Positions 15,930-28,051 of a stretch of 64,000 nt of DNA are shown piece after piece. Source of the DNA: Myxococcota bacterium. GTDB lineage: Bacteria; Myxococcota_A; UBA796; UBA2385. Made by a program: the position numbers and the translations under genes. The stretch is from the NCBI GenBank assembly GCA_044344255.1, contig JBIJDH010000001.1, positions 96,001 through 160,000 on the forward strand. Direction: 5' to 3'. The notes under the pieces are model-generated. The model searched no databases, was not told the DNA's origin, and saw only the letters and a program-made list of their open reading frames with translations. Positions within the stretch are counted from its first letter, which is position 1, and each line of letters begins with the position of its first letter.

Positions 15930-17648
15930 TCAGCCTCCCACCGCTTCGAGGGCGCCCGCGGTGCGGAAGCCCGGGCTCGTGACCAGCGCCCGGAGGAGAG
16001 GCTCGACCCGGTGTTCCTCCATCACGAAGGCCTCGTTCAGCCAGTTCACCATCGCCTCCTCTCCCTCGGCGAGGGGGTGGCCCTCGGCGTAGCGGTACAT
16101 GGTCTCGGTGAGGCAGTACGGCACCCGGGGGCTCTCCGCGAGGCGCTGGCCGAGGCCGATGGCGTCGGCGAAGGGCTCACCGTCGAGCTCGCCGCTGGGG
16201 TCGATCACCGTGTCATTCTCGGTGAGGCGCCAGCTCCCGAGGCCGTCGAAGTTCTCGAGGCCGAGCCCGATGGGGTCCATCAGGTTGTGACAGGTGGCGC
16301 AGGCCGGATCCGTGGCGTGCACCGAGAGTCGGTCGCGCATGGTCGGCCCCGCCTCGGAGACCTCGGGGAGGGAGGCGTTGAGGTCGGCGGGGGGCGGCAG
16401 CACCGTCTGGCAGAGGAGCTGCTCTCGCATCGACTTGCCGCGCACCGTGGCCGAGGTGCTCGTGGGGTGCGCGTTGAGCGCGAGGAAGCCCACCTGGCCG
16501 AGCAGGCCCGCTCGGCCGCCGTCGGCGGGGAGCTCCACCTCTCCGAAGCCGTCCCGCGAGGGCGCGGCGACGTTGTAGAGGGCCGCGAGCTCCCGGTTCA
16601 CAAAGGTGCGGCGGGTGGTGAAGAGGTCAAGGTAGCTCCCCTGCTCTTCGAAGATCAAGGCCTCGATGCCGAGGCGGGTCTCCTCCCGGCCGGCGGCGCC
16701 GAGGCTGTCGGTGAAACGAGTGAAGACCGTGGGGTCCTTGTCGATGTTCGGGAGGGAGTGGAGCGCCAGCATCTCGTCGAAGAGGGTCGCCACCCCCTCG
16801 CGGACACGCGGATCGGCGAGCAGCCGATCGGCCTGGACCGCGATGCCAGCATCGGTGCTGAGCTCTCCCGCCTCGGCGGCGTCGAGGAGCTCATCGTCGG
16901 GCATCGTGTTCCAGAGGAAGTAGCTCAGCCGGGACGCCATCTCGACGCTGGTGTAGACCCGCCCGCCCGCGCCGTCGTCCTCACCGAGCTCGACCCGGTA
17001 GATGAAATAGGGCGACTGCAGCAAGCCAGCGACACCGAACTCAAGGCCGGCGTAGAAGTCGTCGAGCACCGCGGCGGCGGTGGTGCTGACGAGGCTCAGG
17101 CTGTCGAGCTCCTCCTCGCTCAGCGGGCGGCGCCAGGCCCGACGCCCGAGGGCGCGGAGGGTGTCGCGGACGCAGTCCGGATCGACCACGTCCACGGGGG
17201 AGCAGGTGACGAGGGTGGCCCGCCGTGTCTCGGAGGCCATCACCTGCTCCGCGAGGTTGAAGGCAGCGTCTTCGTAATCGGCGACCCCGCTCGCCGAGAG
17301 GCTGGCCGCGGTGGCGCCCTCGGAGAACAAGCCGTCCACGGCGGTGTCCGGCTCGAGGCCCTGAGGCACGACGATGTCGTCGCCGAACAAGGCGCGCACG
17401 GTGTTCCCGTATTGAACGGTGGTCAACCGTCGGAGCTGCGGCTCGGCGGGCGTCACCGAGGGGGCCGGCCCCAGCTCGGCTTGGGACTCACCCTTGGCGA
17501 CCGGCTCGTCCTTGCAAGCCGGGCCGGCGACCAGCGCCGCCCCGAGGGCGAGCGGCAGCAGCGCGGAGGGCGGGCGGTGTCGGAGCGGGTTGTTCAACAG
17601 CTTGTTCAACAGCGGCCACCTCGGCGCGACGGCGCGTTCGCGCGACAA
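15930..17648 (-). CDS. DUF1592/1595/1588/1585 (PSD/PSCyt3) domain lipoprotein with CxxCH
   Basis: LRRLT..QYGNTV, AWRRPL, QSPYFIYR, ASRLSYFLWNTMPDDELL, CATCH..MDPIG.GLENFD. Confidence 0.9.
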   Translation of the reverse strand: MSRERAVAPRWPLLNKLLNNPLRHRPPSALLPLALGAALVAGPACKDEPVAKGESQAELGPAPSVTPAEPQLRRLTTVQYGNTVRALFGDDIVVPQGLEPDTAVDGLFSEGATAASLSASGVADYEDAAFNLAEQVMASETRRATLVTCSPVDVVDPDCVRDTLRALGRRAWRRPLSEEELDSLSLVSTTAAAVLDDFYAGLEFGVAGLLQSPYFIYRVELGEDDGAGGRVYTSVEMASRLSYFLWNTMPDDELLDAAEAGELSTDAGIAVQADRLLADPRVREGVATLFDEMLALHSLPNIDKDPTVFTRFTDSLGAAGREETRLGIEALIFEEQGSYLDLFTTRRTFVNRELAALYNVAAPSRDGFGEVELPADGGRAGLLGQVGFLALNAHPTSTSATVRGKSMREQLLCQTVLPPPADLNASLPEVSEAGPTMRDRLSVHATDPACATCHNLMDPIGLGLENFDGLGSWRLTENDTVIDPSGELDGEPFADAIGLGQRLAESPRVPYCLTETMYRYAEGHPLAEGEEAMVNWLNEAFVMEEHRVEPLLRALVTSPGFRTAGALEAVGG

Positions 17649-20982: not shown

Positions 20983-22614
20983 TCAAGTCGTGATGATGCG
21001 GTCCATGCTCATCCAGCGGCGGAGGAGCGTGTTGGTCATCTCGCCGTTGACCGCCATCGCACCCGCGAGCGCGCCCATCTTCACGAAGTTCGTGGCGTTG
21101 GCCATCTGGATCACGGGCCAGGGGTGCTGACGCAGCAGCTCCGACTTCGAGAGCGCCTTCAGCAGGGGCTTCGGCACGAAGGGCTTGGACAGCATCTGGG
21201 TGAGGGCGATCCAGAAGGTGTCCTCCACCGGACGCGGGTACGCGAGGTTGACCCGGTGCTGGTAGAAGATGCGGGTGTTGTCCATCCCGTCGATGTCGTA
21301 CTTGCTGATGAGCTCGCTCTGAAGGAGCTTGTTGCTGAGCTCCGAGCCCGGGAAGACGGTCATCGAGAAGAGGTAGAGATCGTAGGGGTGCGGGAAGGTC
21401 GCGATCATCTCGAAGAGCTTCCGCTTGTCCTCTTCGGTAGAGACGGGGTCGTCGAAGATGAGCTGGAAGTGCGGCTTCACACCGAGCTTGTGGTACATCT
21501 GCGCGATGTCGGCGATCGAAGAGTTCTTCACGCGGCGGTCATAGAGGTGGCCCGTGACCCGCTCGCTCGACTGCACGCCCATGTAGACGCCGGAGAGCCC
21601 CGCGTCTCGGAGCATCGTCATGCGCTCTTCGTTCACGAGCTTGGGCTCGATAAAGATCTCGAAGGGGAGGCCCACGTCGCGGGGGAAGCGCTCGCAGAAG
21701 TCGGTCAACCAGTCAAGCTGGAAGTTGAAGACCTCGTCATCGAAGCGGATGCGCTTGAAGTCCCAGTGGCTGCGGGCGGCCCGGATCTCCTCCACCATGC
21801 TCGCCGGAGAGCGCACGCGGAACCACTTCTGGCCGGGGTAGACCTCCTTCTTGTAGGTAGAGTTGTAACAATAGCTGCACTTGTAGATGCAGCCGCGGCT
21901 CCCCATCATCTGGAAGACGGGGTCGCCGTGCATGGGGTCGCCCACCATGTACCGCTTGCCCTGGATGAAGTACTTGTGCGCGTGGGTGACGTAGTCCCGG
22001 AAGGCGAGATCATCGAGATCACCGACCAGGGGGCGGAGGCCGTTCTTCTGGACCTCATCCCGCCCGGTGCGGAACCAGAGGTTGGGTGAGGCCAGGGTGT
22101 CGTCGGCGCCATCGCGGAGGCGGTTGGCGAGCTCCAGCAGGGCCAGCTCACCCTCCCCGGAGAGCACCATGTCGGCGTGGTCAATACACTCGCCGGGCAT
22201 CATCGTCGCGTGCATGCCCCCCCAGAGCACGGGGATCTCGTGCTCGAGGTGCAGGTGCTCGGTGATGACACGCGCCTGCTGGGCATAGGCGCTGGCGCGG
22301 ATCGAGATGCAGACGAGATCGAGCTCCTCCTTCCGCACCACCTGCGAGAGGGTGGCGAGCTCTTCGGCGGAGGCGGGGTCCAGGTGGTTCGAGACCCAGT
22401 CCTTGAAGTAGATCTCGACGACGTGGTGCCCTTGGGCCCGCAGCGTCGCCGCGAGGATCCGGACCGCGTTGTTCTCGACGTCCCAGGTGCTGAGGATGCC
22501 GATGCGTGGGCCGTGCGCGCTGGCTTGACGGAAGATCCGGTCCAAGCGGTGATTCTTGTTGCCCGCAAACGCTCCGCTCCGCAGGGGGGCGGGCTTGGCC
22601 AGGGTCGGGTTCAT
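20983..22614 (-). CDS. B12-binding domain radical SAM protein
   Basis: WGGMHAT, GEGE, SRGCIYKCSYC (CxxxCxxC), RFDDE, MGVQS. Confidence 0.93.
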   Translation of the reverse strand: MNPTLAKPAPLRSGAFAGNKNHRLDRIFRQASAHGPRIGILSTWDVENNAVRILAATLRAQGHHVVEIYFKDWVSNHLDPASAEELATLSQVVRKEELDLVCISIRASAYAQQARVITEHLHLEHEIPVLWGGMHATMMPGECIDHADMVLSGEGELALLELANRLRDGADDTLASPNLWFRTGRDEVQKNGLRPLVGDLDDLAFRDYVTHAHKYFIQGKRYMVGDPMHGDPVFQMMGSRGCIYKCSYCYNSTYKKEVYPGQKWFRVRSPASMVEEIRAARSHWDFKRIRFDDEVFNFQLDWLTDFCERFPRDVGLPFEIFIEPKLVNEERMTMLRDAGLSGVYMGVQSSERVTGHLYDRRVKNSSIADIAQMYHKLGVKPHFQLIFDDPVSTEEDKRKLFEMIATFPHPYDLYLFSMTVFPGSELSNKLLQSELISKYDIDGMDNTRIFYQHRVNLAYPRPVEDTFWIALTQMLSKPFVPKPLLKALSKSELLRQHPWPVIQMANATNFVKMGALAGAMAVNGEMTNTLLRRWMSMDRIITT

Positions 22615-24451: not shown

Positions 24452-25129
24452 ATGAAGACCCTCCCGCTCCTCCTCCCGCTCCTCGTCGCCTGCACCAGCA
24501 GCGGCGCCCCATCGAACAAGGACCGCGCTGGCGGTGACGACGCCGACAGCGGCGCGACAGGCTCCGACGGCTCCGACGGCTCCGACGGCGCGGACGGCGC
24601 GGACGGCTCCGACGGATCCGACGGCTCCGACGGCGCGGCGGACAGCGGCGCGGTCGCCTCCCTCCACGGCGACATCCCCGACTCTGCTCTGCCGCTGCCC
24701 ACCTTCGAGGCCACCAACCGCGACGGCACGCCTCGAAACCAGAACGACCTCCTCACGAATCCGACCGTGATGTGGTTCTACCCAGCCGCCGCGACCGGTG
24801 GCTGAACGGCCGAGGGTTGCGGGTTCCGCGACCTCCAGGAAGAGTTTGACGCCATCGGCGTGCGCATCGTCGGTGTGAGCTTCGACTCCCCTTCGAAGAA
24901 CCAGAGCTGGGCCGAGGGTGAGGGCTTTACGTTCGAGCTGTGGACCGACAGCGATCGCACGCTCGCGCTCTACTACGGCGCCGCCAGCTCAGAGGACCAG
25001 CTCTACGCCGAGCGCCTCACCAAGATCCTCGACGCCGAGGGGACGCTCGTGCTCGAATACTCGGTGACGAGCATCCCCTCGCACCCCGCCAACGTGCTCG
25101 AGGACTGCATCGCCCTCTTTGGCGGCTGA
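24452..25129 (+). CDS. Lipoprotein BCP/PrxQ-type peroxiredoxin, probable selenoprotein (Sec at TGA 24803-24805), 225 aa
   Basis: LVAC lipobox; WFYPAAATGG-TGA-TAEGCGFRD aligns with BCP FYPxxxTPGCTxEAC; same frame continues IVGVSFDS...LWTDSDR...RLT; SECIS-like hairpin downstream. Confidence 0.88.
24560..24631 (+). repeat. 8 x 9-bp coding tandem repeat (Gly-Ser/Ala-Asp)
   Basis: GGCTCCGAC / GGCGCGGAC / GGATCCGAC units. Confidence 0.9.
24812..24835 (+). promoter_or_regulatory. Bacterial SECIS-like stem-loop
   Basis: GGTTGCGG-GTT-CCGCGACC hairpin; G-starting loop 17 nt after the TGA. Confidence 0.75.
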
Positions 25130-25183
25130 CCCGGGGCGGGCGCCCGGGGCGCCGCTCGGGTAGATTCGGCCTTCGGAGTCGCC

Positions 25184-26935
25184 ATGCCCCTCGATCGGCC
25201 CTCACGCCGCCCCGCCCTCCTCGCGAGCCTGCTTCCACTCCTCTTGAGCGGGGCGCCCTTCGCCTGCAAAGAGGAGGCCGAAGGCGGTGACAAAGCAGGG
25301 GGCGGCGGCGAGACCGGCGACGCCTGGCGCCCCGATCTCGTCTGCCCTGGCGACGCAGGCTGCGAGACGAACGAAGGCGCCTTCCAGGCCGGCGCTGCCG
25401 CCCTGCCGATCACCCCCACCTGCTTCGAGAGCTGGACCGACCTCGACGGCTCGCTCACGTACAGCTCCAGCCAGGACAGCTTTAACGACTGCGGCTGCGA
25501 CCGCCTCTGCGAGGGAGATGAGGGCTACCCCGGCCCTGACGCCGGCGAGGCGGACGGCGAATTCCAGCCGATCTGGATCGCCGGCTTCGGCCAGGGCCGC
25601 GCCGCCACCGATGTGCACGACGACACTTGGGCCCGCGCCGCGGCCTTCCGCTCCGGCGACACCACCGTGGCCCTGGTCTCCCTTGACCTCGTCGGCCTGT
25701 TCAACAACGACGTCGTCCGAATCCGGGACGCGGTGAAGGCGGCGGGGGTCGACGTCGACCACGTCGTCGTCCAGTCCACCCACGTCCATGAGACGGCCGA
25801 CACGCTCGGGCAGTGGGGCTCCAACTTCTCCCGCCGCGGCGTCAACGACGACTACCTGGCCTACGTGATCAGCCAGTCTGCGGCAGCCGTGCAGCAGGCT
25901 GTCGCCCAGCTCGAGCCGGCCACGCTCACCACCGGCGTGATCGACAGCGCCGCCCCCTTCGGCGCCAAGGGCACCCGCAACACCGTGCGGGACAGCCGCG
26001 ACCCGGTCGTCATCGAGGAGCGCGTGAAGGTGGCCTGGCTCACGGGAGCCGACGGCCACACCATCAGCACGCTCGTCAACTGGGGCAATCACCCCGAGGT
26101 CCTGGGCGGTGACAACACCCTCATCACGAGCGACTACGTGCACTACCTCCGCCAGGGGGTCGAGCAGGGTGTGAGCTGGGACAGCGGCGACCGCGCCGGC
26201 CTGGGCGGCGTCTGCGTCTTCGTCGAGGCCTCCGTGGGGGGGCTGATGACCCCCCTCGGCATCACCGTCACGGACATGGACGGGGCCGACTTCGAAGGAG
26301 ACACCTGGGAGAAGGCGGAGGCCCTCGGAAAGGTGGTGGCCGACCTCGCCCTCCAGGCCGCGGCCGGTGGATCGGAGGCCACGGAGCCCCGCGTGGCGGT
26401 CTCGACCACCCGTTTCTTCGTCCCGGTAGAGAACTATGCCTTCCAGGCGCTGTTCCTCCTCGGGACCTTCGACCGGCCGATCTTCAACTACGACCCCGAC
26501 CGCGACCTCGACGAGACGAACATCCCCGATCTCGAGACCGAGGTGAACCTCGTGACGGTCGGCCCCATCCGTATGTTGTCCATCCCCGGCGAGCTCACCC
26601 CCGAGCTCGCCATCGGCGGCTACGACGGCAGCCGCGTGAACACCGACGAGGTCGAGCTCATCAAGGCCGACAACCCGAACCCGCCCGACCTCAGTCTGGC
26701 CCCCACCGGCCCTTACTTCGAAGACCTCATGGGGGGCGAGCAGGCCTGGATCATCGGGCTCGGCAACGACGAGATCGGCTACCTCATCCCTCCCTATGAC
26801 TACAAGCTGAACGAGTCCTCGCCCTACCTCGTCGACGCCGAGGGGGATCACTACGAGGAGACCAACTCGGTCGGGCCCTCGGCGGCCCCGGCCATCATCG
26901 CCGCGGTCGAGGCCCTGACAGGCTACACCCCATAG
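25184..26935 (+). CDS. Lipoprotein, neutral/alkaline ceramidase-like metallohydrolase
   Basis: PFAC lipobox; STHVHE, NWGNHPE, IPGELTPE, GLGNDEIGY, HYEE motifs. Confidence 0.78.
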   Translation: MPLDRPSRRPALLASLLPLLLSGAPFACKEEAEGGDKAGGGGETGDAWRPDLVCPGDAGCETNEGAFQAGAAALPITPTCFESWTDLDGSLTYSSSQDSFNDCGCDRLCEGDEGYPGPDAGEADGEFQPIWIAGFGQGRAATDVHDDTWARAAAFRSGDTTVALVSLDLVGLFNNDVVRIRDAVKAAGVDVDHVVVQSTHVHETADTLGQWGSNFSRRGVNDDYLAYVISQSAAAVQQAVAQLEPATLTTGVIDSAAPFGAKGTRNTVRDSRDPVVIEERVKVAWLTGADGHTISTLVNWGNHPEVLGGDNTLITSDYVHYLRQGVEQGVSWDSGDRAGLGGVCVFVEASVGGLMTPLGITVTDMDGADFEGDTWEKAEALGKVVADLALQAAAGGSEATEPRVAVSTTRFFVPVENYAFQALFLLGTFDRPIFNYDPDRDLDETNIPDLETEVNLVTVGPIRMLSIPGELTPELAIGGYDGSRVNTDEVELIKADNPNPPDLSLAPTGPYFEDLMGGEQAWIIGLGNDEIGYLIPPYDYKLNESSPYLVDAEGDHYEETNSVGPSAAPAIIAAVEALTGYTP

Positions 26936-26941
26936 GACTCC

Positions 26942-28051
26942 ATGAGAGATCTGTACACCGTGCTCGGCGTCGCCAAAGACGCTGACCAGGCCACGATTCG
27001 AAAGGCATACAAGAAGCTCGCCCGCGAGTTTCACCCTGACTTGAACAAGGCCCCCACCGCGGCGGACCGCTTCAAGGAGATCAGCGCCGCCTACGAGGTG
27101 CTCGAAGACGAAGAGAAACGCTCTCTCTACAACGAGTTTGGTGAAGCGTCGCTCAAGGGTGGCTTCGACGCCGAGCGCGCCCGCCAGTGGAAGTCGATGG
27201 GCGGCGGCGCGGGGGGTGGCGGCTTCCCCGGCGGCTTCGGGGGAGGCGGCGTGAACGTCGACGACCTCTTCGGCTCGCTCTTCTCCGGCGGGAGACGCGC
27301 CCAGGCCCCGCGGGCCAAGCGGGGCACCGACATCGAGGGCACCGTGCCGATCGGCCTGATGGACGCCCTCAAGGGCGCCACGAACAGCATCACCGTCCGC
27401 CGCCCCTCGAGCTGCGGCGCCTGCCAGGGAGAGGGTGGCACCGGCCGCAGCGCATGCCCCACCTGCCGGGGCACCGGGCGGATGGAGACCCACCAGTTTG
27501 GCGGGCGGATGGCCATCCCCTGTAACGAGTGCGACGGCAGCGGCAGCGCCTTCGCCGACGAGTGTGCCACCTGCGCGGGCACCGGCCGCACGATGCAGGA
27601 GGAGATCCTCAAGGTGAAGGTGCCGGTGGGGGTGAAGGACGGCCAGACCATCCGTCTCCGCGGCAAGGGCGGCGAGGGAGAGCGCGGAGGCCCTTCAGGA
27701 GACCTGCTGCTCACCATCGAGGTGGAGGCGCACCCCTTCCTCGAGCGGGACGGCGACGATCTCCGAATGGAGGTCCCCCTCACCCTCTCCGAGGCGATGC
27801 TCGGCGGCGGCGTGACCGTCCCCACTCCCCTCGACGGCGAGATCAAGGTCAAGGTGCCCCCCGGCGTACAGAACGGGCAGCGGATGCGCATCAAGGGTAA
27901 GGGAGCGGGAGAGGGCACCAGCCGAGGCGACCTCTACCTGGTGATGCGCCCGACCCCTCCCGTGACCGGCTCACCGGAGGCCCAGGAGCTCGCCCGGGCC
28001 CTCGACCGCTTTTATGAGGGAGACGTCCGGGAGAAGCTCCGCTTCGCTTGA
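26942..28051 (+). CDS. dnaJ: Chaperone DnaJ (class A)
   Basis: J domain with HPD, G/F region, four CxxCxGxG repeats, DnaJ_C. Confidence 0.93.
   Translation: MRDLYTVLGVAKDADQATIRKAYKKLAREFHPDLNKAPTAADRFKEISAAYEVLEDEEKRSLYNEFGEASLKGGFDAERARQWKSMGGGAGGGGFPGGFGGGGVNVDDLFGSLFSGGRRAQAPRAKRGTDIEGTVPIGLMDALKGATNSITVRRPSSCGACQGEGGTGRSACPTCRGTGRMETHQFGGRMAIPCNECDGSGSAFADECATCAGTGRTMQEEILKVKVPVGVKDGQTIRLRGKGGEGERGGPSGDLLLTIEVEAHPFLERDGDDLRMEVPLTLSEAMLGGGVTVPTPLDGEIKVKVPPGVQNGQRMRIKGKGAGEGTSRGDLYLVMRPTPPVTGSPEAQELARALDRFYEGDVREKLRFA

Follow-up and report, generated by a model that had tools for sequence, protein, structure and literature searches.

A peroxiredoxin frame with an internal TGA

The window, the whole 64,000-nucleotide stretch that we analyzed, carries a predicted peroxiredoxin lipoprotein gene on its forward strand, with the following features.

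24452..25129 (+): whole gene, 225 aa with UGA predicted as Sec at codon 118; predicted BCP/PrxQ-type peroxiredoxin lipoprotein
24452..24493 (+): predicted lipoprotein signal peptide with lipobox LVAC (from the sequence and a lipobox regex in the family)
24494..24661 (+): acidic low-complexity linker rich in Asp, Gly, and Ser (DGS/DGA repeats), predicted to be a disordered tether
24662..25126 (+): thioredoxin-fold PrxQ/BCP catalytic domain, aa 71-225, with P111, T115, U118, and R188
24803..24805 (+): in-frame TGA, predicted selenocysteine U118 at the peroxidatic position (PxxxTxxU118)
24815..24833 (+): bacterial SECIS-type hairpin, 8-bp stem, 3-nt GUU loop, -11.9 kcal/mol
24818..24820 (+): Cys123 (UxxxxC), candidate helix-alpha2 resolving cysteine, in 72/73 copies
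25106..25108 (+): Cys219 in the C-terminal helix (211-223), candidate alternative resolving or structural Cys, in 57/73 copies
25184..26935 (+): predicted lipoprotein, co-oriented, 54 nt downstream, with a weak neutral-ceramidase-like match

The frame at 24452-25129 (+) reads MKTLPLLLPLLVAC...WFYPAAATGG*TAEGCGFRD...EDCIALFGG* and holds 225 codons plus a terminal TGA; its sole internal stop is the TGA at 24803-24805, codon 118. The ORF list cuts the gene into two ORFs, the first ending at 24805 and the second spanning 24860-25129, and we verified the claim of a preliminary description of this DNA that one frame, split by the ORF track, runs from the lipobox through the TGA to the C terminus. 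That description was made without the hairpin at 24815-24833 and without the third cysteine, C219, in the last helix. Translated with U at position 118, the protein divides into four segments, namely, a signal that ends in LVAC14, an acidic D/G/S linker reaching about residue 70, a PF00578 domain, and a helix at the C terminus. The U118-read protein scored 85.6 bits against PF00578 in a profile search (cutoff, 26), and alignment placed the TGA column on the peroxidatic Cys of M. tuberculosis BcpB (5epf) and Xanthomonas PrxQ, as had been proposed for the only stop.

In the protein collection, the N-terminal 117 aa and the C-terminal 89 aa of the window's protein are stored as separate entries. 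The N-terminal piece of two relatives, one of them MCB9779969.1, is named hypothetical protein, and most of the 94 domain matches are pieces of 85 to 110 aa with partial domain coverage. Several relatives are labeled Alphaproteobacteria by NCBI, and one fragment carries the label Myxococcales, which points to Myxococcota. The U118-read frame corrects a systematic annotation error: a gene that about 80% of the order's genomes carry is entered as a hypothetical protein and a peroxiredoxin fragment that lacks the active site.

Contigs from two independent runs (lake metagenomes), neither of them marked as the source, cross the TGA with no change and read neither TGC nor TGT at this site. Record 20 of X6 has 0 differences over 24584-25375, record 6 of X12 has 4 differences with none in the TGA, and 7 of 7 variants downstream of the TGA are synonymous; the comparison of contigs covered 4 of the 24 listed runs. 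Of all 24, 18 contain half or more of the words of the stretch; these runs are all from lake, fresh, or river water, and three may be the source. Two RNA contigs, X19 (24871-25115) and X20 (25006-25267), cover parts downstream of the TGA only and cannot show transcription.

Conservation and probable decoding of the TGA

The gene is present in 18 of the 21 other genomes of the family, and all 21 TGA loci of the family (the window's own and two paralogues included) have the TGA at the identical column. At an E value of 1e-28, 124 of 154 genomes of the order gave a match, with 145 matches in total. One TGA is found in 134 of the 145 and none in the other 11, ten of which have TGC at this position and one of which, a divergent copy, has Ser. 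Of the 145 matches, 58 were extracted; setting aside the Ser copy left 10 Cys copies and 47 TGA copies, the latter from seven families. Because the TGA occupies the same column in 21/21 family TGA loci and 47/47 order-level TGA copies, its position is not due to chance. In a sample of the phylum, 89 of 401 genomes matched at an E value of 1e-22, and the 20 loci taken from outside the order all have the TGA, 16 with a long N-terminal extension and 4 as short cytoplasmic Sec-PrxQs. Lipoprotein Sec forms were found in other orders and classes too. A pattern search of the genome contigs returned 2 loci only. Downstream of the TGA, dN/dS was 0.22 to 0.33 in five close pairs, a result that shows purifying selection and not the relaxed selection of a pseudogene.

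The stem of the SECIS-type hairpin starts nine bases past the UGA, and the loop starts 17 nt after the UGA. The hairpin agrees with all four consensus bSECIS criteria (loop of 3 to 9 nt, stem of 4 to 16 bp, G in the first two loop positions, 16 to 37 nt from the UGA, MFE of -7.5 or lower; PMC13188914). By itself, the hairpin was not unusually stable relative to shuffled sequence (z of -0.24 to -1.3), and because this single-hairpin shuffle test was not significant, the support for the element is comparative. The 19-nt hairpin was kept in 47 of the 47 TGA copies examined and in 0 of the 10 Cys copies. The TGA copies have 19 identical bases except at one loop position (43 with GUA and 4 with GUU) and fold at -11.9 kcal/mol, and the Cys copies (n = 10) use other codons for almost the same residues, with folding energies of -3.7 to -7.5 kcal/mol. 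Codon +4 is GGT in 47/47 TGA copies versus 0/10 Cys copies, and codon +6 is GGG in 47/47 versus 1/10; in the rest of these genes, GGT accounts for 14% of Gly codons, and in the long ORFs of the genome, for 7.5%. Over codons +4 to +9, pS was 0, versus 0.52 to 0.57 in the flanks (30 pairs). In 25 rows picked so that every stem variant is included, pairing held in 97.5% of cells, two pairs changed on both sides, and the pairing or covariation score was reached by 0 of 500 shuffles, a type of count that kinship of the rows inflates. The gene offers a clean natural control for the bacterial SECIS, with the codons for the same residues frozen in 47/47 Sec alleles and freed in 10/10 Cys alleles.

The decoding genes that the preliminary description had proposed to look for are all present in the host genome (G000; 8.18 Mb, 95% complete): selA (397.6 bits), selB (268.4 bits), selD (259.6 bits), and tRNA-Sec (64.3 bits), each above its curated cutoff. 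The tRNA-SeC was also called by ARAGORN, and it is the sole TCA-anticodon tRNA found. SelD is a Cys form, fused behind an N-terminal domain that by eye resembles a pyridine-nucleotide oxidoreductase (L005:235-2583, G000 C52). As an internal control, a formate-dehydrogenase-like molybdopterin gene at C54:29207-31210 (-) of the same genome has a TGA in frame together with a GGUCU-loop hairpin of its own. No selA match was obtained in five TGA-bearing genomes, four of which have selB and tRNA-Sec. No match to the gene was found in G079 (97% complete) or G086 (98%), two genomes that lack both selA and tRNA-Sec.

It is very improbable that the TGA is a true stop, whether in a pseudogene or through an assembly error, or that it encodes Trp or Cys under another code. 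The two database fragments and G052, a 77% complete genome with a TGA-bearing match in which neither selA nor selB was found, fit a true stop, but the same TGA and frozen hairpin recur in 47/47 copies of seven families, selection downstream is purifying, and independent runs agree on the TGA. One database homologue, P0003, has Trp at the TGA column, most simply through the gene caller's choice of code; arguments against another code are that TGA also terminates the gene and most of its copies and that no TCA-anticodon tRNA other than tRNA-Sec was found. We regard it as very likely from these comparisons that the internal TGA is decoded as Sec and that the frame is a single selenoprotein gene.

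We built a quick tree rooted on the four cytoplasmic Sec-PrxQs; of 84 rows, 18 were excluded because they were near-duplicates, cytoplasmic Cys BCPs, or a long branch. The exported copies fell on one side of a branch with a support of 100, and the Cys copies were nested inside. In the simplest reading, a cytoplasmic Sec-PrxQ would have gained the anchor and the Cys alleles would be derived. Sec-to-Cys origins number 2 to 5, since parsimony counts 5 changes and the starred branches force only 2. We did not retain the idea of several independent Sec-to-Cys reversions, as a single origin for the 8 non-paralogue Cys rows was not rejected (p-AU 0.425). An origin of the Cys alleles through loss of the Sec machinery was also set aside: 8 of the 10 Cys-copy genomes have a selA match (one of them partial), and G067 has tRNA-Sec. 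The Sec-to-Cys changes, mostly in genomes that keep selA, provide matched alleles with which the advantage of selenium to a noncytoplasmic peroxidase can be addressed.

Several loci depart from the common arrangement. L095 (G074 C34:98500-101200) holds three tandem Sec copies of the peroxiredoxin lipoprotein with a hairpin in each. L050, L051, and L052 form a divergent paralogue clade without the Pro and Thr of PxxxTxx, in which 2 of 3 retain Sec and the hairpin and which possibly has a changed activity. In L127 (G440 C210), the Sec peroxiredoxin is apparently fused to a preceding domain in place of the short signal. In four genomes of genus g54 (L096-L099), the gene lies 4 to 7 kb from selA. 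We treated this linkage as incidental, given the unrelated genes in between and the lack of such a link in the window's genome.

Predicted envelope location, active site, and proposed recycling

A lipobox has the motif [LVI][ASTVI][GAS]C. Scored by regex after a hydrophobic stretch, it was present in 53/57 and 66/73 family copies (two copy sets). In the window's protein, the predicted lipid-attachment site is Cys14 (24491-24493), with Thr at +2. Among the copies missed by the regex, L043 and L080 look frameshifted upstream, L090 has a Cys-less signal, L127 is the apparent fusion, and three have lipoboxes visible by eye. The h-region of the signal peptide is short and holds two prolines, which counts against a lipoprotein. 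Judged from the sequences, the gene product is very likely a lipoprotein, consistent with the earlier proposal of an exported, membrane-tethered protein.

The linker is 7 to 133 aa long across the family, and residues 1-70 of the AlphaFold model have a pLDDT of about 50 to 60 with no secondary structure assigned. The preliminary description had considered this architecture unusual. That view does not hold for this lineage: the same module of lipobox and acidic linker heads 161 of 637 lipobox-like starts in the genome (rough regex), and because it is so common, we regard the anchor and linker as the style of the lineage and not as a special adaptation. The envelope appears very rich in lipoproteins: the genome has five Lgt homologues, and an acidic low-complexity linker follows about 160 of the lipobox-like starts.

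The E. coli +2 sorting rule concerns Asp at +2, which is found in 0 of 66 lipobox copies. Lys is found at +2 in 3 of 66, and the Myxococcus sorting rule for lipoproteins involves +2 Lys, according to the available part of PMC3222651. Since the +2 residue of the window protein is neither Asp nor Lys and the genome has LolA (1 match, with 5 for Lgt), sorting to the outer membrane is suggested.

The active site is well kept, with P in 69/73, T or S in 71/73, and R (R188) in 73/73 copies, and given the conservation of these residues, peroxidase chemistry is what we infer as the best reading. From residue 71, the AlphaFold model forms a block with a pLDDT of 84 to 98, mostly 95 to 98; the top Foldseek matches were BcpB 5epf, Bcp1 3drn, and Xanthomonas PrxQ, and there is no Prx1/Prx6-type C-terminal extension. 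No NCBIfam model reached its cutoff with the protein. The equivalog scores were 64.2 versus 140 for NF006960 (Bcp) and 48.1 versus 260 for NF053650 (PrxQ), and four Cys relatives were likewise below the NCBIfam BCP/PrxQ cutoffs. The PrxU model NF040737 gave 16.7 versus 270 bits.

The UxxxxC pattern of the preliminary description stands as far as the presence of C123 is concerned, but the resolving role may not be that of C123: this codon falls within the SECIS stem, the Sec lipoprotein L120 lacks the residue, and C219 is an alternative. A Sec lipoprotein peroxidase with a structural C123-C219 disulfide (or with C219 resolving), in which U118 acts as a 1-Sec center resolved by a partner protein or a small thiol, is a reading that we consider unlikely. 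Because the stem holds the C123 codon, the conservation of C123 is not independent of the RNA; even so, C123 is retained in 10/10 Cys copies despite the decayed hairpin. C219 is absent from the four cytoplasmic Sec-PrxQs, a point in favor of this reading, but it is also missing from 16 of 73 copies, all of which except L120 keep C123. L120, with both cysteines missing, retains Sec and the hairpin. In the accessible text of PMC4749874, the resolving Cys of PrxQs may sit in helix alpha2, alpha3, or alpha5, with the alpha2 position used by about 60% and about a third having none, so that this source can be read both ways.

The host genome has one DsbD_TM gene, a 1004-aa open frame (L104:2477-5491, G000 C36) with two DsbD_N matches and a thioredoxin domain. 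Its two N-terminal domains are different, one DsbD-alpha-like and the second matching 6c29, which we take to be the ScsB N-domain, and the predicted layout is as expected of a ScsB/DsbD-type transporter. There are 32 PF00578 matches in the genome, some of them ResA-like. Reduction of the periplasmic PrxQ PprX by ScsB passes through TlpA in Caulobacter, and deletion of pprX caused no peroxide sensitivity, as reported in the part of PMC3322552 available to us.

Three more lipobox-bearing thioredoxin-fold genes of the genome have a TGA at UxxC with a hairpin behind it.

L101, G000 C26:174942-175661 (-): lipobox, thioredoxin fold, UxxC
L102, G000 C59:222787-223620 (+): lipobox, thioredoxin fold, UxxC
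L100, G000 C18:61926-63956 (-): lipobox, thioredoxin fold, UxxC

One of these is above the cutoff of NF053656 (TUGYCR selenoprotein), and one is a long fusion that ends in the redoxin; each type is widespread in the order, mostly with the TGA. Relatives of the TUGYCR type at G058 C47:60031-60450 and G060 C7:38807-39229 have a double TGA, possibly double-Sec. L103 (G000 C51:89087-89719, +) is a SelL-related redoxin with UxxC and no signal. This list of the selenoproteome is incomplete because our genome-wide UGA scan missed FdhA and one redoxin, which were found by other routes.

The three Sec TlpA-like lipoprotein families did not track the peroxiredoxin gene among 86 genomes at least 90% complete: they were found in 50, 34, and 33 of 71 gene-bearing genomes versus 8, 10, and 4 of 15 gene-lacking genomes, and 11 of the 71 had none of the three (single-protein queries at an E value of 1e-25, absence meaning not found with that query). 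Co-occurrence therefore gave no support to a dedicated all-selenium relay. This lack of co-occurrence also fits a Sec lipoprotein that faces the cell surface or matrix, where it would scavenge or sense outside oxidants with no ScsB/DsbD recycling. We consider such a location improbable. The lipobox and acidic linker that the protein shares with many other starts of the genome would suit it, and Myxococcus sends some lipoproteins to the extracellular matrix, but the matrix signal is Ala at +7 in the consulted portion of PMC3222651, and the window protein has Pro there. Moreover, a peroxiredoxin needs a reductant, and the transmembrane electron source of this genome delivers to the periplasm.

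The downstream gene at 25184-26935 scored 21.7 bits against PF04734, below the cutoff of 32.1. It adjoins the peroxiredoxin in 13 of 35 loci, all in family f1, the window's family, and is a possible operon partner linked to lipid handling. Also nearby in the window are a B12-binding radical SAM gene at 20983-22614 (-), a DnaJ homologue at 26942-28051 (+), and a DUF1592/DUF1588 protein at 15930-17648 (-), for which we saw no link.

The best explanation overall, and one that we think probable, is an exported, lipid-anchored Sec BCP/PrxQ that likely reduces peroxides in the periplasm. In this mechanism, SelB with Sec-tRNA would bind the hairpin and Sec would be inserted at U118. The protein would be exported and receive its lipid at Cys14; its probable destination is the inner face of the outer membrane, where the domain would sit on a flexible acidic tether of about 55 residues. 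The U118 selenolate would attack H2O2 or organic (possibly lipid) hydroperoxides, and the resulting selenenic acid would be resolved, most simply by C123, to give a selenenyl-sulfide. Re-reduction could come from a periplasmic TlpA/ResA-like thioredoxin fed by a ScsB/DsbD-type transporter, by analogy with PprX in Caulobacter. For the whole sequence of steps, from Sec insertion to ScsB/DsbD recycling, our confidence is moderate.

The genome has three heme-copper oxidase subunit I genes, and because these occur together with lake or river sources, oxic life is indicated. The peroxiredoxin is the most widely kept of four predicted lipid-anchored thioredoxin-fold selenoproteins in the genome. Taken jointly, these observations allow a more speculative reading, to which we give little weight: an oxygen-respiring aquatic lineage may have moved much of its selenoproteome to the envelope, and the tethered Sec-PrxQ would be a reductase of membrane-lipid hydroperoxides that ScsB feeds across the inner membrane, a bacterial working analogue of GPX4. 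If this is true, the question of why selenium is kept in an oxidizing compartment could be addressed directly with the natural Sec/Cys alleles in Sec-decoding genomes.

Relation to known systems

Sec-peroxiredoxins, envelope PrxQ (PprX), and exported or lipid-anchored selenoproteins are already known, and we did not find the combination, a lipid-anchored Sec-PrxQ, described. Our literature search returned no lipid-anchored Sec-peroxiredoxin; supplements of selenoproteome surveys may contain members, and subscription journals were mostly outside the search. The Sec Peroxiredoxin (Prx) family is defined by PF00578 and the motif (Pxxx)TxxU, with the prototype in Eubacterium acidaminophilum, and three copies are listed for Anaeromyxobacter dehalogenans (PMC13188914, Table 1; PMC1794560, Table 3; both sources available in part). 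The window's gene shares with this family PF00578, PxxxTxxU, a UGA with a coding-region bSECIS, and a selABCD host, and it adds the N-terminal lipobox and acidic tether. In the accessible review text of PMC13188914, the words "lipoprotein," "signal peptide," and "periplasm" were not found. In the available text of PMC1794560, Sec-Prx is associated with low oxygen, and the changes counted in Prx are five from Cys to Sec and none from Sec to Cys, whereas the host here looks aerobic and the Cys copies are nested inside a Sec clade.

SaoX/SaoC lipoproteins (bioRxiv 10.1101/2022.07.06.499078) and periplasmic MccSep (PMC13510729) indicate, in the parts of these reports consulted, that selenoproteins can be exported and lipid anchored. 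However, their folds and functions are unrelated to those of the window's protein, and they are described in anaerobes. The cytoplasmic BCP/PrxQ proteins (BcpB 5epf, Sulfolobus Bcp1 3drn, and Xanthomonas PrxQ) are the best sequence and fold matches and have the same active-site residues, but identity is about 26 to 32%, and Sec, the lipobox, and the linker are additions of the window's protein.

PprX of Caulobacter crescentus (PMC3322552, available in part) shares the BCP/PrxQ subfamily, PxxxTxxC/U plus Arg, and an export signal, and its setting of a ScsB/DsbD-type transporter with TlpA-like proteins is also found in the host genome. The window's protein differs in having Sec for Cys and a predicted lipid anchor with a long acidic linker in place of the 20-aa signal sequence of PprX. 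Compared by description, the two cysteines of PprX are far apart in sequence, and the window's protein has one Cys in alpha2 and another in the C-terminal helix.
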